From a virus, in UHGV virus genome UHGV-0147235: DNA of 38,886 nucleotides; one strand, given 5' to 3'. Below, piece after piece: positions 197 through 38,886 of this stretch; the stretch's first letter is position 1; every line of letters begins with the position of its first letter. The position numbers were made by a program, and so were the translations under genes. The notes under the pieces are model-generated. The model was not told the origin of the DNA and searched no databases. It saw only the letters and a program-made list of their open reading frames with translations.

Positions 197-1321
197 TTAA
201 AAAACATTCTTTATATACTTCTCGAAATTTTCTTTAGCGTCATCATTCATTTTTTTAGTTACATGACTATATACTTCACTCGTAATGGCTTCAGATTTAT
301 GACCTAAGCGTTCCTGGATTACTTTCATAGGTACATTGCTTTCTAGAAGTAGCGTAGCATGTGTATGTCTTAGTTTATGAATACTTAATCTATTATCTTT
401 ACCTAGTAATTTTCCAGTAACATACATCATAGTATTATGAGTTGTTGAGCGTGGTAATGGTTCACCAAACTCATTACAGAAAATATAATCGTAAGAATTA
501 TTATAGAAATCCGCATTAACAATTTTGTTACTATTTTGTAGATTCTTAAGTTTAAACAGTTCTTTAGCTAACTCATCTGAAATAAAAATAACTCTGTTTT
601 CTTTATTTTTAGTGGGTCCAAATTTATTAGACTTTTGATTATACGATTTAGTAATTGATAATGTTTTAAGTTTTCTATCATAATCATTCCAATTTAAAGC
701 ACTAGCTTCACCAATTCTCATACCAGTTTCTATTAGCGTTCTAAATAAAAAATATTGATATACATCTCTTTTACGTACCATATCTAAAAATGGTTTAATT
801 TTATCTTTAGGTAGATATTTAGCTTTTTCTTGTTGTTTCAAATCTATATGTTGCAAGGTTATACCATCACATGGATTGTGATGAATGAGTCTGTCATATT
901 TAGCTCTTTCTAAGCTACGCTTTAATAGATTATGTGTTTTAGATAATGTGGATTTACTATAACCTTTTTCAATTAAGTAATTGATAAAACTTTGATGTAT
1001 AGAGGGAGTAATGTCTTTTATATTTATATCGTTATAAAAGTCTAATATTCGTTTCTTCGAGAATTGTTCAATGTCAAAACTACTATCGCTTATCTTATTT
1101 TTTCTCCAAGTTTCAAGATAGTAATCGAGCCATTCTGTTAGAGTATAATTTTTTTCTTCTTTATAGCCTTTATTAATCTTACTTTCTAGTTCTATTGCAG
1201 CGCGTTTAGCTTCTTGTTTCGTTCTAAAGCCTGATTTACTAATATATTTTTTTCTTCCTAAATTATCATTATAATGAATTTTAAAACGCCATTTACTACC
1301 ACGTTTTTCGAATGATGCCAT
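197..1321 (-). CDS. int: Tyrosine recombinase / phage integrase
   Basis: C-terminal catalytic region HKLRHTHATLLL...LGH...EVYSHV (R-H-R-Y family). AGGAG lies 9 nt upstream of the ATG at 1321. The ORF-track ATG at 1330 abuts the SD and is unlikely to be used. Confidence 0.9.
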   Translation of the reverse strand: MASFEKRGSKWRFKIHYNDNLGRKKYISKSGFRTKQEAKRAAIELESKINKGYKEEKNYTLTEWLDYYLETWRKNKISDSSFDIEQFSKKRILDFYNDINIKDITPSIHQSFINYLIEKGYSKSTLSKTHNLLKRSLERAKYDRLIHHNPCDGITLQHIDLKQQEKAKYLPKDKIKPFLDMVRKRDVYQYFLFRTLIETGMRIGEASALNWNDYDRKLKTLSITKSYNQKSNKFGPTKNKENRVIFISDELAKELFKLKNLQNSNKIVNADFYNNSYDYIFCNEFGEPLPRSTTHNTMMYVTGKLLGKDNRLSIHKLRHTHATLLLESNVPMKVIQERLGHKSEAITSEVYSHVTKKMNDDAKENFEKYIKNVF

Positions 1322-1387
1322 GTAAATCATCTCCTAGTTGTTAATTCTTGTTGTATAAAAATAGGGTAGACAAGCTACCCATAATTA

Positions 1388-35054: not shown

Positions 35055-35447
35055 ATGGCAGAAATGGCAGATAAATATAATATTGAAGTAGACGACTTTA
35101 TGAGTCTTATCTATTCGGGTAATAAGGTGTTTGTTTATATTTTATTATTACTTATTTTTGTAGATGTAGTTACTGGAATGATTACTGCATTTAGTGAAGG
35201 TAAATTAATGAGCAAGAAAGCAATGTTAGGGTATGTTAAGAAAATCGCATTTTTATGCGTCATCATTGTATCCAATACATTAGATATTATTTTCCAATTA
35301 CATGGCTTACTTGTTAATGCGACAGTAATGTTCTTTATTATTGGAGAAGCAACAAGCATTGTAGAAAATTCAGTGAAGTTGGGCGTACCAATTCCTGAAC
35401 AACTTAAAAACAGATTAAATATTACTGAAGAAACTAACAAAAACTAA
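35055..35447 (+). CDS. Holin
   Basis: 130 aa with 2-3 TM helices (VFVYILLLLIFVDVVTGMITAF, IAFLCVIIVSNTLDIIF) and a charged C-terminus, immediately upstream of the endolysin. Confidence 0.8.
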   Translation: MAEMADKYNIEVDDFMSLIYSGNKVFVYILLLLIFVDVVTGMITAFSEGKLMSKKAMLGYVKKIAFLCVIIVSNTLDIIFQLHGLLVNATVMFFIIGEATSIVENSVKLGVPIPEQLKNRLNITEETNKN

Positions 35448-35493: not shown

Positions 35494-36411
35494 ATGGCAA
35501 AAGAATTTTTAGAAAATTGGAACGGTGTACCTGTATATTTAGATTTAATTCCTTATGGTACACGTCGTACTGGACAAAAATTAGATACTGGAAGTCCTAT
35601 CTTCGCAGTATATCACGATACTGGTAATCCAGGCAGTACAGCACAACAAAACGTGGACTATTATAAAAATACTTACATGGAACCGTGGGCATCAACAGCT
35701 TCAGCGCACTTCTTTGTAGATGATAAAGAATGTATTATTAATGTACCAATTGATGAGAAAGCATGGCATGTTTTATATGATACGCCTACTGATAATTATT
35801 ACTTTGGAGATGATGCAAACGATGCTGCGTTTGGGGGCGAGTTATGTTACTTCCCTGATGATAGAGAGCGTTCATTAACTGCATTAGATAATTTCGCAAG
35901 AGTCTGTGCAGTATTATTTGAGTCTTGGGATATCGACCACTTCCATAAGTGTCCAGGTCATCAAGATATTCAAGATGACAAGCAAGATCCAGGTAATGCA
36001 CTTGAAGCGTGTGGCTATGGTAGACATGAGATTGATGTCATTGATAACTTAGTACAAAAATATATGGATGGTACAGATGTAGATAAAGATACAATTACAG
36101 ATTTACCTGAAAAAGATGATGTTATTGAGAAAAAACCAGTGGGATGTACACGTGTTAAAGTATGGTCTGAAGAACCTTATTATAGAGGAACAATTAAATA
36201 TGATGCATCATTACGTGAACGTGCTGGTAGTAGCTTTGATAACTATAGTTTTGCAAGTGAAAAAGATGTACTTGAAGCGGGTTCCACAGTATACATTTAT
36301 GAAGAAATTCAAGATCCACAAGGTAACATTTGGTGTAGAACATATTCACCAAGTAACAATGGCTGGGTGCATAAGCACACTATTGAAGTAGAAGAAACTT
36401 ATAAAAAGTAG
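35494..36411 (+). CDS. Endolysin: N-acetylmuramoyl-L-alanine amidase (Amidase_2/PGRP-like) with C-terminal SH3b-like wall-binding domain
   Basis: N-terminal amidase-like region (YHDTGNPGS...AHFFVDD...AWHV) and C-terminal SH3-like domain (YRGTIKYDASLRERAG...GNIWCRTYSP). Confidence 0.8.
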   Translation: MAKEFLENWNGVPVYLDLIPYGTRRTGQKLDTGSPIFAVYHDTGNPGSTAQQNVDYYKNTYMEPWASTASAHFFVDDKECIINVPIDEKAWHVLYDTPTDNYYFGDDANDAAFGGELCYFPDDRERSLTALDNFARVCAVLFESWDIDHFHKCPGHQDIQDDKQDPGNALEACGYGRHEIDVIDNLVQKYMDGTDVDKDTITDLPEKDDVIEKKPVGCTRVKVWSEEPYYRGTIKYDASLRERAGSSFDNYSFASEKDVLEAGSTVYIYEEIQDPQGNIWCRTYSPSNNGWVHKHTIEVEETYKK

Positions 36412-36592: not shown

Positions 36593-37366
36593 TTGGAAAT
36601 TATTTCAGAAATCACTGAGGATGTGGGGAATGGAGTAACCGATCCAATTCGAGGATATATAGATGATAAAAAAGTTGTTGCAAAGTACATACACAATAAC
36701 GAAGGATTTATTGCGTTATTCAATGAATTATTAGGCTATAATTTAGTTGAATTTTTTGGTATAAGACATCCCCATTTTGGATATGCATTGTTTAGCAAAG
36801 AAGATACGGCAGTGAAAAATGGGAAAGATTACGTACATAGTAGTTTGTTCACATACACAACTTGGTTAGAAAAATCATTAACAATTACTTCGCCCAGTAT
36901 GACATCTTTTGTTCAAAAGAGTGAAATTGTCAATTTGCTTCTATTTGATATCTTTATTTACAATAAAGATAGAAATTTAGGTAATTTATTAATAGAAATC
37001 CCTAAAAAATTATATCCTATTGATTATACTCATATTTTACCAGGTGGATGTATTTGGCCAGATGTACTTAAAAATGATGATTATAGTATAGAGGATATAA
37101 TTAAGGATATGTTTAGTTCTGGATATTATCAATATTTACTTGAAAATAGAAAAATTGAAACATCAATAATTGAAGATTGTGGTAGAAATTTTGTTGATAA
37201 AGTTAATGATGTTGATATTGAAAGTATTATTTCTAAAATTCCTATTTATTTAAAAAATAATCTTTCTGAGGAAAATATACAACTACTACACAAGTACTTT
37301 ATCTACATTAGCGAGAATTTTGATGAAGCTATTAAATATATAATAGAAAAAATAGGAAAGGAGTGA
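36593..37366 (+). CDS. Minimal protein-kinase-like fold protein (HipA/APH/ePK-like catalytic core): candidate moron kinase
   Basis: G-loop-like VGNGV (11-15), VVAK31, E45, catalytic-loop-like D126-R-N-L-G-N131, and Asp144 (PIDY) 18 residues after D126. TTG start with SD. Confidence 0.6.
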   Translation: MEIISEITEDVGNGVTDPIRGYIDDKKVVAKYIHNNEGFIALFNELLGYNLVEFFGIRHPHFGYALFSKEDTAVKNGKDYVHSSLFTYTTWLEKSLTITSPSMTSFVQKSEIVNLLLFDIFIYNKDRNLGNLLIEIPKKLYPIDYTHILPGGCIWPDVLKNDDYSIEDIIKDMFSSGYYQYLLENRKIETSIIEDCGRNFVDKVNDVDIESIISKIPIYLKNNLSEENIQLLHKYFIYISENFDEAIKYIIEKIGKE

Positions 37367-37372
37367 TTGAGT

Positions 37373-38104
37373 ATGTTTAAAGTGAATTATTCAGTGTTAA
37401 GTTACTATCCAGATATATATTTAAGAAGTAATCTAGCTATAGGTGTTGCTTTTGAGGTAGTAGGAGAAAACTATCATAAAAATGAAGTTAAATTTATAAC
37501 TCAAAGAAAAAAAATTGTATCTTTTGATGATGAACTTGAAGATTTAGAATTTATTAATATGTTTTTAGATGGATTAAAATTTGAATTTGAACATACTCAT
37601 CAATCGCTTCAGAATTATATAAAAAGATTTGTTAATAATTTTTATTTTGAAGATATTGAACATAGAAAATTTAGTTCTATTAATGAAGTTGATGATTTTA
37701 TTAATAAAACTTATAAATACATTTTACATCTTGGCTTGAATAAAAAGGAAAGATTAAATGTAAATGAAAAAAGAAAGTATGTAATGACTTATTTAGAAGG
37801 ACGATATACAGATATAACTTCTAAGCATGTCGTAAGTGGCAAGAATTCATTAGATAAATTTACTCCAGATTTTGTTGCTAAGGATATTGAAAATAAAGAG
37901 TTCCTTTTTAAATTTTTAAATAAAAATAATACAACTATTCATAATGCGAGATCTTATATTCTATATTCAATTATGAACGAAACAAATCTGATTTTAATTC
38001 TTGAGGATGATATGGTAGAAGAAGAAAAACTTTTGAAAGAATTCATCAATAAATTTGAAGCTAAAGTTCAATTAAAAAATGAGCAGGATTTAATTAAGAA
38101 TTAA
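37373..38104 (+). CDS. Hypothetical partner protein translationally coupled to the kinase-like gene
   Basis: AAAGGAGTG overlaps the upstream stop; 7 nt to ATG 37373. 244 aa, no domain recognised. Confidence 0.6.
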   Translation: MFKVNYSVLSYYPDIYLRSNLAIGVAFEVVGENYHKNEVKFITQRKKIVSFDDELEDLEFINMFLDGLKFEFEHTHQSLQNYIKRFVNNFYFEDIEHRKFSSINEVDDFINKTYKYILHLGLNKKERLNVNEKRKYVMTYLEGRYTDITSKHVVSGKNSLDKFTPDFVAKDIENKEFLFKFLNKNNTTIHNARSYILYSIMNETNLILILEDDMVEEEKLLKEFINKFEAKVQLKNEQDLIKN

Positions 38105-38105
38105 T

Positions 38106-38134
38106 AAACCATACCTATGAGGTATGGTTTTTTT
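38106..38134 (+). terminator. Rho-independent terminator
   Basis: AAACCATACC-TATGA-GGTATGGTTT followed by a T-run. Confidence 0.75.
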
Positions 38135-38150
38135 AAATAAAGAAAAACAG

Positions 38151-38178
38151 TTGAATTATATCACATATGTGATATAAT
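38151..38178 (+). promoter_or_regulatory. Strong sigma70-type promoter with an embedded perfect palindrome
   Basis: TTGAAT (38151-56), 16-nt spacer, TGaTATAAT (38170-78). The 18-bp palindrome ATATCACATATGTGATAT (38158-75) spans the spacer and the -10. Confidence 0.6.
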
Positions 38179-38207
38179 ATAAGTATCAAGAAAGAAAGGA
38201 GAAGGAA

Positions 38208-38315
38208 ATGAAAAGAAGTGAAAAAGAAAAAGAACGAATTGAAAAAATAAAGTATCGATTAGCTATAGCAGGCTTAATAATTCAAATACTTAATTTTATC
38301 AAATCGTTCATTTAA
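38208..38315 (+). CDS. Small peptide (35 aa): charged N-terminus plus hydrophobic C-terminal helix
   Basis: AAGGAG lies 6 nt upstream of the ATG. Translation: MKRSEKEKERIEKIKYRLAIAGLIIQILNFIKSFI. Not in the ORF track. Confidence 0.45.
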   Translation: MKRSEKEKERIEKIKYRLAIAGLIIQILNFIKSFI

Positions 38316-38365
38316 TGGTAAAGGGTTAAAAGCCCTTTATCTCATTATATATGGAGGTGAGGTCT

Positions 38366-38455
38366 ATGACAAGAGAATTGAGAAAGAAGTTAACATTTTA
38401 TATAAATATATTATCTTTAATTTTGTTTATCGTAAATATAATAAGAAGAAAATAA
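38366..38455 (+). CDS. Small peptide (29 aa), TM-like, type I toxin-like architecture
   Basis: GGAGGTG lies 6 nt upstream of the ATG. Translation: MTRELRKKLTFYINILSLILFIVNIIRRK. Preceded by the 38319-38339 hairpin. Confidence 0.45.
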   Translation: MTRELRKKLTFYINILSLILFIVNIIRRK

Positions 38456-38487
38456 TAGAATATTTCTTTTCATTTCCTATTTAATTT

Positions 38488-38700
38488 ATGAATCAGTTTA
38501 ATCATATATATACAGTTATAGAAAAATTGCTAAACAATAATGAAATATCGAATTATAAAATTAAAAAAGATACTGGTATTTCCTATGGAGGCATAAGTGA
38601 GTTAAGAAATGGTAAAAGAAAAGTCAAAAATTTAACTCTAGAAACTGCAGAAAAACTTTACAATTATCAAGTAGAATTAGAACAAAGTGATGAAAAATAA
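38488..38700 (+). CDS. Small XRE-like HTH DNA-binding protein
   Basis: ISNYKIKKDTGISYGGISELRNGKRKVKNLTLETAEKL is a helix-turn-helix segment. No obvious SD upstream. Confidence 0.5.
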   Translation: MNQFNHIYTVIEKLLNNNEISNYKIKKDTGISYGGISELRNGKRKVKNLTLETAEKLYNYQVELEQSDEK

Positions 38701-38743
38701 AACAAGGCTCTATCTTTTGCTACATAAGGGATAGAGCCTTGTT
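38701..38743. other. Perfect 14-bp inverted repeat AACAAGGCTCTATC / GATAGAGCCTTGTT around a 15-nt loop, without a U-tract
   Basis: Seen directly; immediately precedes the attR-side repeats. Confidence 0.5.
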
Positions 38744-38794
38744 AGTTGCCCAGTGTAAATAATTTATTATATTGGGCAACTAAATGGGCAACTA
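38744..38794. repeat. attR-side arm-type repeats: TGGGCAACTA inverted at 38744-38753, direct at 38773-38782 and 38785-38794
   Basis: Same 10-mer as at 132-193. A 13-nt match TGGGCAACTAAAT is shared between 132-144 and 38773-38785. Confidence 0.5.
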
Positions 38795-38886
38795 CAATTA
38801 ATTCACGATACATTAATAAAATGTAAAAACATTGATATAAAGCTATTTAACAATATAATAAACCTTTTTATACCCAATTTGCTAAA

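Follow-up and report, generated by a model that had tools for sequence, protein, structure and literature searches.

Anti-CRISPR (Acr) and lysogenic-conversion genes of Firmicute phages usually lie in the arm between the lysin and the right attachment site (attR). In the UHGV virus genome UHGV-0147235 (38,886 nt; the whole of this analysed stretch is called the window here), the arm ends in a module, at 38151-38745, made up of a strong promoter, two open reading frames (ORFs) for very short hydrophobic peptides, named here pepA and pepB, and the gene for a small helix-turn-helix (HTH) protein. What do the two peptides do there, and what keeps them in check? We consider it likely that the module is a self-contained accessory operon, autorepressed in the manner of the anti-CRISPR-associated (Aca) regulators, that carries two membrane micropeptides and whose translation is gated by the fold of its mRNA. 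Judged by homology, the regulator and the promoter logic are of an already known kind, namely Aca-type control by the HTH family of AcrIIA13-15 and Aca11. The membrane-micropeptide cargo, and an intramolecular helix of ~260 nt in an Aca-type operon, appear to be new.

The HTH gene (38488-38700, plus strand) encodes a 70-aa protein that matches Pfam HTH_26 (4e-5) and phrog_1529, and no Shine-Dalgarno (SD)-like sequence precedes it. Compared with solved structures, the protein is homologous over residues 10-68 to the N-terminal domain of AcrIIA15 (8jfr/8jfo; E 1.2e-12, ~50% identity) and also to Aca11 (9lx2; E 1.5e-5). Through the N-terminal domain that they share, AcrIIA13-15 bind inverted repeats located in the promoter of the operon that encodes them (Watters et al. 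2020, PMC7104187). In the AcrIIA15 structures a dimer sits on a ~20-bp repeat, one of two repeats being located between -35 and -10, and a reporter assay showed repression (PMC10901769). Aca11 binds 22-bp inverted repeats (PMC12658196). Among the AcrIIA15 residues that contact the DNA backbone, S30, N34 and T43 are kept in the window protein and two are replaced conservatively (K37 by R, S46 by T); among the base-reading residues, S25 is kept, Q26 is replaced by Y and K31 by E. Backbone contacts mostly kept, with two of the three base readers changed, are the pattern to be expected if the same fold reads a different operator. The family comprises 192 clusters at 50% identity (E up to 1e-3). 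Judged by protein lengths, the HTH domain forms the N-terminus of a longer protein in ~44% of the best 150 of these 192 clusters, which marks it as a modular N-terminal regulator.

The operon is preceded by a plus-strand sigma-A promoter (38151-38178) consisting of TTGAAT (38151-38156), a 16-nt spacer and an extended -10 with TG at 38170-38171 and TATAAT at 38173-38178; transcription is expected to start near 38185. The same layout is seen in six related loci (L003, L004, L007, L012, L023 and L030). Lone promoter-like hits are not significant in so AT-rich a window (17 found against 20 expected), and the module rises above chance because every one of its elements is kept, in the same order, in ~30 related loci. 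Spacer and -10 are spanned by the perfect 18-bp palindrome ATATCACATATGTGATAT (38158-38175). An initial annotation of this DNA had pointed out the near-consensus promoter and this palindrome and had suggested tight repression; both are present, and the palindrome extends to 24 perfect base pairs, ATTATATCACAT followed by ATGTGATATAAT (38155-38178). When the 73 nt ahead of pepA were shuffled 500 times, an equally good inverted repeat never arose.

Related loci carry a palindrome at the same promoter position, with lineage-specific half-sites that change along with the recognition helix of the HTH protein. The window clade has the operator TTATATCAC / GTGATATAA (half-site TATCAC) and the recognition helix SYGGISEL; the clade of Staphylococcus haemolyticus phage IME1318_01 has TTATATCTC / GAGATATAA (TATCTC) with SYGNISEL, and the vB_SepS_48 clade TTATAGCTC / GAGCTATAA (TAG(C/T)TC) with SYGNINAM. 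In vB_SpsX-DS3 the repeat ACGTATACGT (ACGTAT) accompanies SRAKIGRL, and in S. simiae 13-nt arms beginning AATGAGTCATAT accompany AYNGISEL. Several of these repeats are individually non-significant, and the argument for an operator is one of position and co-variation. Because the protein is homologous to the AcrIIA15 N-terminal domain and to Aca11, and because operator and recognition helix co-vary, the 24-bp palindrome is very probably the operator of the HTH protein, which very probably binds it, presumably as a dimer, and represses its own operon. This lends support to the tight repression suggested earlier. The protein thus shares with Aca autorepressors a homologous HTH domain and an inverted repeat inside its own promoter. 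At 70 aa it has no C-terminal domain, and in the window it is neither fused to nor a neighbour of a verified anti-CRISPR; since the window operon holds no Acr, we call the regulator Aca-like rather than Aca.

The two genes upstream of the regulator are pepA (ORF1; 38208-38315, plus strand), encoding 35 aa, with the SD GGAG 6 nt before its ATG, and pepB (ORF2; 38366-38455, plus strand), encoding 29 aa, with the SD GGAGGTG 8 nt before its ATG. An alternative 34-aa reading of pepB begins at 38351, its first codons being the SD itself. In both peptides a charged N-terminus is followed by ~18 hydrophobic residues: the product of pepA has a charged N-terminal segment of 16 residues and a C-terminal transmembrane helix, and that of pepB a short basic N-terminus and a transmembrane helix. 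The initial annotation had described these ORFs, their good SDs and their charged and hydrophobic parts, as well as the 70-aa HTH protein without an SD, and its description holds throughout. It missed the kinship with anti-CRISPR loci and the long-range RNA pairing described below.

Both pepA and pepB are genuine genes for single-pass membrane peptides, and codon comparisons show purifying selection on them. The proportions of synonymous (pS) and nonsynonymous (pN) differences in pepB are 0.80 and 0.14 between the window and L002, 0.36 and 0.04 between L007 and L008, and 0.75 and 0.09 between L041 and L010; where pS is 0.74-0.80, pN is 0.03-0.14. For pepA, pS is 0.32 and pN 0.15 between L004 and L030, and 0.77 and 0.22 between L004 and L007. 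Every indel in the alignments of the two genes is a multiple of 3. The N-terminal half of the pepA product contains a (K/R)K(K/E)ER motif, and its helix a Gln ('LIIQI') conserved in all lineages except L041; an Asn in the pepB helix is shared by all the staphylococcal lineages other than the L041/L010/L035 group. In most lineages each helix thus has one polar residue inside it, which suggests that the two peptides bind each other and act as a small complex in the membrane.

The order pepA-pepB is retained in ~30 staphylococcal loci. In each of 36 scanned loci the HTH gene follows, at a distance of at most 35 nt, a gene for a transmembrane peptide of 27-41 aa, and most of these loci also have pepA. 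Distant relatives of the HTH protein are similarly accompanied: ORF187 (36 aa) precedes ORF073 in phage 55, an unannotated 51-aa two-helix peptide precedes orf66 in phiMR11, a 41-aa peptide precedes ORF60 in Streptococcus phage PH15, and a Facklamia genome encodes a 33-aa peptide related to that of PH15. Neither the two peptides nor six homologues or analogues of them matched any family in Pfam, PHROGs, NCBIfam or PADLOC. A tblastn search of phages with pepA and pepB returned only the two closest relatives, the method being too insensitive for such short hydrophobic queries. pepB is unannotated in the GenBank records of PhiSepi-HH1, IME1318_01 and vB_SepS_48. In the literature, within an incomplete coverage, we found no membrane peptides described for acr/aca operons or for the region after staphylococcal endolysin genes; accounts of AcrIIA13, AcrIIA13b, AcrIIA15 and Aca11 and a recent Aca survey do not mention them either, which is absence of evidence.

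A remnant of the module lies in the S. aureus chromosome downstream of glnR-glnA (L046/L047 5897-6225; L002 1500-2014), with pepB and the HTH gene intact, pepA frameshifted and the promoter replaced. Some S. aureus annotations fuse pepB and the HTH gene into one 108-aa protein, and one such cluster (P0009) occurs on 710 contigs.

The kinship with anti-CRISPR loci is most direct in phage IME1318_01 (L003) and ~ten IMG/VR relatives, in which pepA and pepB are followed by the gene for a 195-aa protein. The N-terminus of this protein is a homologue of the window HTH protein, and its C-terminal part shares 93% identity with AcrIIA13b (8k4m) and is a clear homologue of AcrIIA13 (7eni, E 2e-27). The same protein has been aligned as 'Staphylococcus phage AcrIIA13', with the accession printed as ARM678220.1 (FEBS J, PMC13147308). 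vB_SpsX-DS3 shows the same arrangement with a 202-aa fusion, and AcrIIA13-family C-terminal domains occur in the fusions of L003, L021-28 and L041. The window copy of the operon is the version without an Acr domain. The 'truncated' AcrIIA13b (129 aa, 8k4m) is equivalent to residues 67-195 of an uninterrupted 195-aa ORF starting with the HTH domain (L028 2501-3088, L025, L003 1852-2439). In this ORF an SD-like GGGGA or AGGGA precedes the internal Met67 and none precedes Met1. The shorter form may reflect either a choice made in annotation or an isoform translated from an internal start. The upstream neighbour of AcrIIA13 named 'GF5 gene 1' by Watters et al. was considered as a peptide of the pepA/pepB type and rejected, as the corresponding loci (L042-L045) have a 157-aa soluble protein.

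The second layer of control is predicted to lie in the mRNA. A repeat scan found a perfect 15-nt inverted repeat, AGGAAATGAAAAGAA at 38203-38217 against TTCTTTTCATTTCCT at 38464-38478, both on the plus strand, which would form a helix spanning ~260 nt between the pepA start and the spacer ahead of the HTH gene. The 5' strand takes in the pepA SD in its 3' part and runs on through the AUG and codons 2-4. The 3' strand places CAU opposite that AUG; gaps of 9 nt separate it from the pepB stop on one side and from the HTH AUG on the other. An equivalent pairing of different sequence is present in every lineage, with a complementarity of 11-15 nt, a length reached in 0-1 of 2000 shuffles: GAAAUGAACCGAA / UUCGGUUCAUUUC in the IME1318_01 clade, GGGAUGAGACG / CGUCUCAUCCC in vB_SepS_48, UGAAACGAAUGG / CCAUUCGUUUCA in S. 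simiae and GAAAUGAGGCGAAA / UUUCGCCUCAUUUC in vB_SpsX-DS3. In lineages whose pepA begins with GUG the partner retains CAU and the pair becomes G.U. This favours a pairing in plus-strand RNA over one in DNA or minus-strand RNA.

Folding of the whole operon points to the same structure. RNAalifold, given 17 non-identical operons, finds the long-range helix unprompted, together with three further helices, H2, H3 and H4. In an alignment anchored on AUG and CAU, 72% of the cells are paired, against 38-52% with the partner slid; 11 of 19 pairs show double changes, and the covariation score is 0.33 against 0.12-0.21, a value equalled in none of 500 shuffles. The solid core of the helix runs from -3 to +9 around the pepA AUG. 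This anchored mini-alignment was used, along with per-sequence folds, since in the full-module alignment the window clade is off by 3 columns at the pepA start and H3 by 1. The loci are phylogenetically clustered, so that sequence counts overstate the independent events, and the signal comes from ~six distinct lineages. For the window mRNA (38186-38500) the folding energy is -67.5 kcal/mol (z = -4.9), and the long-range helix, H2 and the post-pepA hairpin are all present in both its minimum free energy (MFE) and centroid structures. Rfam gave no match for the module RNA at the gathering threshold or at a lax E-value.

The three further helices are placed around pepA and the start of pepB, all on the plus strand. 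H2 (38232-38309) pairs GAACGA (38232-38237) with UCGUUC (38304-38309), closes most of the pepA ORF and shows an exchange of AU for GC (9:7) at one pair. It covaries though both arms are coding, and H2 and the KKER motif may constrain each other. H3 (38317-38341) is a GC-rich hairpin directly after the pepA stop, of 11 bp in the MFE fold (38317-38327 with 38331-38341); the hairpin that had been noted between the ORFs at 38319-38339 is thus real. It is found in every lineage with altered stems (GGGC/GCCC becoming CCCC/GGGG in L041). H4 (38339-38358) pairs an anti-SD, A(U/C)CUC, with the pepB SD GGAGGU around an invariant CAUUAUA loop; alignment columns 176-180 and 192-196 are paired in 15-16 of the 17 sequences, and H4 forms in the MFE folds of L004, L007, L030, L041 and L002. 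The 3' end of H3 overlaps the anti-SD AUCUC (38339-38343) by 2-3 nt.

Decaying copies lose parts of the module together. L015 (2150-2510) is a decaying copy of the window type with a destroyed -10, a frameshift in pepA, a changed hairpin and a mismatch in the partner strand; in L008 and the S. aureus group pepA is disrupted and the long-range pairing is gone. Two other roles for the repeats were considered and rejected. A helix that lends the pepA SD to the HTH start was set aside as the main idea, since the window helix swallows part of that SD, and it is also undercut by a summed spacing of 9-15 nt across lineages. Repeats of 15 bp flanking an invertible DNA segment are opposed by the G.U pairs at GUG starts and the lineage-specific covariation, which point to RNA, and the minus-strand ORFs so created would have merely 7-18 codons and are not conserved.

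From these elements we propose the following course of events. By analogy with its homologues, and given the co-variation of operator and recognition helix, an HTH dimer on the palindrome would block RNA polymerase and shut its own operon. Expression would then surge when the phage DNA enters the cell and settle at a steady low level in the lysogen. In the full-length mRNA the long-range helix would cover the pepA start and end 7-15 nt ahead of the HTH AUG, so that the message would be largely closed for pepA and, by its geometry, poor in de novo initiation at the HTH gene. A ribosome that completes pepB, whose stop codon lies 6-9 nt ahead of the 3' strand, would melt the helix; the pepA start would then become accessible, and re-initiation could take place at the HTH gene, which lies 32 nt further on and has no SD. 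As H3 overlaps the anti-SD, termination at pepA could tip the balance towards a closed pepB SD. Taken together, the two peptides would be made in limited and roughly balanced amounts, and the repressor would be made in step with them. Restraint of translation by mRNA structure is consistent with a product that is toxic or sensitive to dose. Our best guess is that the peptides are a dose-sensitive membrane effector in phage-host or phage-phage conflict, for example in phage exclusion or counter-defence, which would suit the Acr-repressor fusion of sister phages, the location of the module in the accessory arm and the restraint on translation.

Several observations weigh against this reading. 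The window operon holds no anti-CRISPR domain and no soluble acidic Acr-like gene, and an 'anti-defence' label for it is therefore guilt by association. In AcrIIA13 loci of the S. schleiferi type (L042-L045) the upstream gene encodes a soluble protein of 157 aa and membrane peptides are absent, and vB_G30_01 encodes an 80-aa soluble protein in their place, so that the link between peptides and HTH gene is frequent, not universal. The window promoter has a single inverted repeat as against two in the AcrIIA15 promoter. The anchoring of the covariation mini-alignment was chosen from the sequences themselves. Finally, we infer the order of translational events, in which pepB translation opens the helix and pepA and the HTH gene follow, from geometry alone.

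The surroundings of the module are those of a prophage end. The window represents a temperate siphovirus of S. epidermidis, PhiSepi-HH1 being 97.5% identical over the module-bearing arm, and encodes an integrase (197-1330, minus strand), a holin (35055-35447; Phage_holin_4_1, PF05105, 1e-27) and an amidase (35494-36411). The attR core (38770-38784, plus strand) repeats the same 15 nt, TATTGGGCAACTAAA, found at 181-195 and lies 70 nt beyond the HTH stop. Since this core is common to both ends and the module lies just inside attR, the module is the last element of the prophage, as the initial annotation had placed it. TGGGCAACTA occurs three times at each prophage end (132-193; 38743-38794) against 1.3 expected, and these repeats are probably arm-type sites of the integrase. 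Upstream, the preceding 245-aa gene ends in an intrinsic terminator found by a terminator scan (38106-38137, plus strand; 11-bp stem at 38106-38130, then a T-run), which sets the module apart as its own transcription unit. Downstream, a very stable closing hairpin with 14 perfect base pairs, or 19 bp with extensions, occupies 38701-38743. Its U-tract (UUAUUUUU) is on the minus strand only, and the hairpin may mainly block transcription of the host flank from entering the prophage. An inverted copy of the att-arm repeat TGGGCAACTA (38743-38752) adjoins this hairpin. Just past attR, the flank contains a near-consensus, plus-strand promoter-like site (38832-38859, TTGATA-16-TATAAT, 11 of 12 matches).

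The genes upstream of the module (36593-38104) encode a HipA_2-like kinase (PF20613, 7.6e-7) and its 245-aa partner, both belonging to PHROGs of unknown function, with a weak match to the PADLOC model PDC-M03A. Homologues of this pair with ~50% identity are encoded at L043/L044 9-1249, likewise in the accessory arm, ~270 nt upstream of the S. schleiferi-type AcrIIA13 operon; the pair therefore appears to travel with acr loci.

A minus-strand promoter-like site at 38344-38372 (TTGTCA, 17 nt, TATAAT; 11 of 12 matches) is a candidate start point for an RNA complementary to H3 and to pepA in its 3' half. Its -10, the plus-strand CAUUAUA loop, is invariant in all clades, and its -35 is TTGNCA or TTTTCA; across clades the -10 is more conserved than the coding parts. 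This site would speak for a classical type I toxin-antitoxin (TA) system, in which the cis-antisense RNA starting from it (38372..38344) would be the antitoxin and the HTH protein an extra transcriptional lid; as a hairpin loop, the invariant -10 would not have to be conserved. The peptides suit a type I TA system in being small and hydrophobic with charged ends, and the fold resembles that of a toxin mRNA in closing translation starts: the long-range pairing closes that of pepA, as in the fold-back inhibition of hok mRNA, and the anti-SD can close the pepB SD. We nonetheless regard such a system as improbable. Pfam, PHROGs, NCBIfam and PADLOC hold no toxin family for the peptides or their homologues, and Rfam no antitoxin. 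The minus-strand -35 is the complement of pepB codons 1-3 and the -10 lies in an A/U-rich stretch before the SD, so that both hexamers overlap plus-strand signals and may be conserved for plus-strand reasons. No convincing terminator was found for the antisense RNA, and in related phages the same mRNA encodes a Cas9 inhibitor needed early, which is ill-suited to a suicide toxin. The initial annotation had likened the peptides to type I toxins or holins. The single-pass membrane character behind this comparison stands, but membership of a type I toxin family does not, as neither a toxin family nor an antitoxin RNA was matched and the evident control is by a protein repressor. The comparison with holins fails too, the prophage having its own Phage_holin_4_1 and amidase and the module its own promoter and repressor. 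A role in lysis as holin, antiholin or another timing factor, which the small single-pass peptides and the position downstream of the holin-endolysin cassette might recall, is for these reasons extremely unlikely: that cassette is already complete, two genes and a terminator intervene, pepA and pepB match no holin family, and a sigma-A promoter behind the terminator would keep the module out of the late transcript.

An abortive-infection or superinfection-exclusion device, in which the peptides would act as depolarising or entry-blocking effectors that the HTH protein limits in the lysogen and that infection by another phage releases or raises, is also unlikely as a full account, though it overlaps with our own guess at function and does not exclude it. 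It would explain why membrane peptides under translational restraint have their own promoter and repressor in the 'moron' arm between lysin and attR, with steady low expression in lysogens, and next to a defence-like HipA-like kinase module. It is opposed by the lack of a match among PADLOC models and of an evident sensor component, and by the anti-CRISPR in the same operon of related phages, which points to counter-defence. The SD-less HTH gene, found throughout the clade 23-35 nt after the pepB stop, and the helix that joins the pepA start to the region before the HTH start could also be read to mean that pepA and pepB act solely as leader peptides or as upstream ORFs with a regulatory role. 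Their products would then have no function, and only the act of translation would matter for expression of the HTH or HTH-Acr protein. This is very unlikely given the purifying selection on amino acids (pepB pN 0.03-0.14 at pS 0.74-0.80) and the conserved hydrophobic helix, with its polar Gln or Asn kept in most lineages. Membrane peptides also stand before distant HTH relatives that do have an SD (phiMR11, PH15). An Aca-type autorepressed operon with membrane-peptide cargo remains our preferred explanation.

A bolder version of this explanation is possible, and we put it forward tentatively. pepA and pepB might be an unrecognised class of phage membrane micro-effectors and the ancestral cargo of the AcrIIA13/15-type HTH regulon, to which Cas9-inhibitor domains were later add-ons; the long-range mRNA switch would tie synthesis of the repressor, or of a repressor-Acr fusion, to peptide translation, with the cis-antisense RNA as a possible extra layer. 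If so, the module would combine Aca-type with type-I-like control and would act on a membrane target in the conflict between phage and host. The HTH family serves as a search seed for new anti-CRISPR and anti-defence genes, and throughout one large staphylococcal branch it is accompanied by two membrane micropeptides and not by soluble Acrs; pepB is almost always missed by genome annotation. Should the peptides act in phage-host conflict, they would represent a new kind of small membrane effector. The covarying pairing over ~260 nt offers a concrete, testable case of translational wiring inside an Aca-controlled operon, and may explain how the SD-less AcrIIA13-type fusion proteins are translated.

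Closure of a start region by a distant downstream segment is known from the fold-back of hok/sok and from the long-distance translational coupling of RNA phage MS2. The module resembles these in the distant closure of a start that translation of another cistron is expected to open, and in a small membrane peptide as product. It differs from hok/sok in its control by a protein repressor, in peptides unrelated in sequence to known toxins and in an antisense antitoxin that is only a candidate. With the binding of Aca2 and Aca1 to structured motifs in the 5' untranslated region (UTR) the module shares a post-transcriptional restraint on top of promoter repression; there a protein acts on a short operator-like stem-loop of the 5' UTR (PMC13551039), whereas here the element is an intramolecular helix of ~260 nt unlike the operator.

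Aca11 of Streptococcus mobile elements (PMC12282945, PMC12658196) is, like the window protein (E 1.5e-5), a small HTH protein encoded by the last gene of a short operon, with a ~22-bp palindrome in the operon promoter that is bound by a dimer, as is predicted for the window protein. The window HTH gene differs in having no SD of its own. Aca genes by definition adjoin a verified acr, whereas the genes upstream of the window regulator encode hydrophobic peptides without sign of Acr activity: in place of the small soluble, usually acidic Acr or Acrs of a canonical acr-aca operon there are peptides with a basic or mixed-charge N-terminus and ~18 hydrophobic residues.

The closest known systems are the AcrIIA13, AcrIIA14 and AcrIIA15 operons of Staphylococcus (PMC7104187, PMC10901769). 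Unlike these proteins, the window protein ends after the HTH domain and has no Cas9-inhibiting domain, and its operon starts with two membrane micropeptides, whereas S. schleiferi AcrIIA13 has the 157-aa soluble upstream gene. Compared with AcrIIA15, there is one palindrome instead of two repeats, and two of the three base readers and the operator sequence differ. The HTH family, the inverted repeat between -35 and -10, the autorepression (very probable here), the host genus and the prophage accessory region are alike, and in IME1318_01 the homologue of the pepA-pepB-HTH operon itself bears an AcrIIA13-family C-terminal domain.

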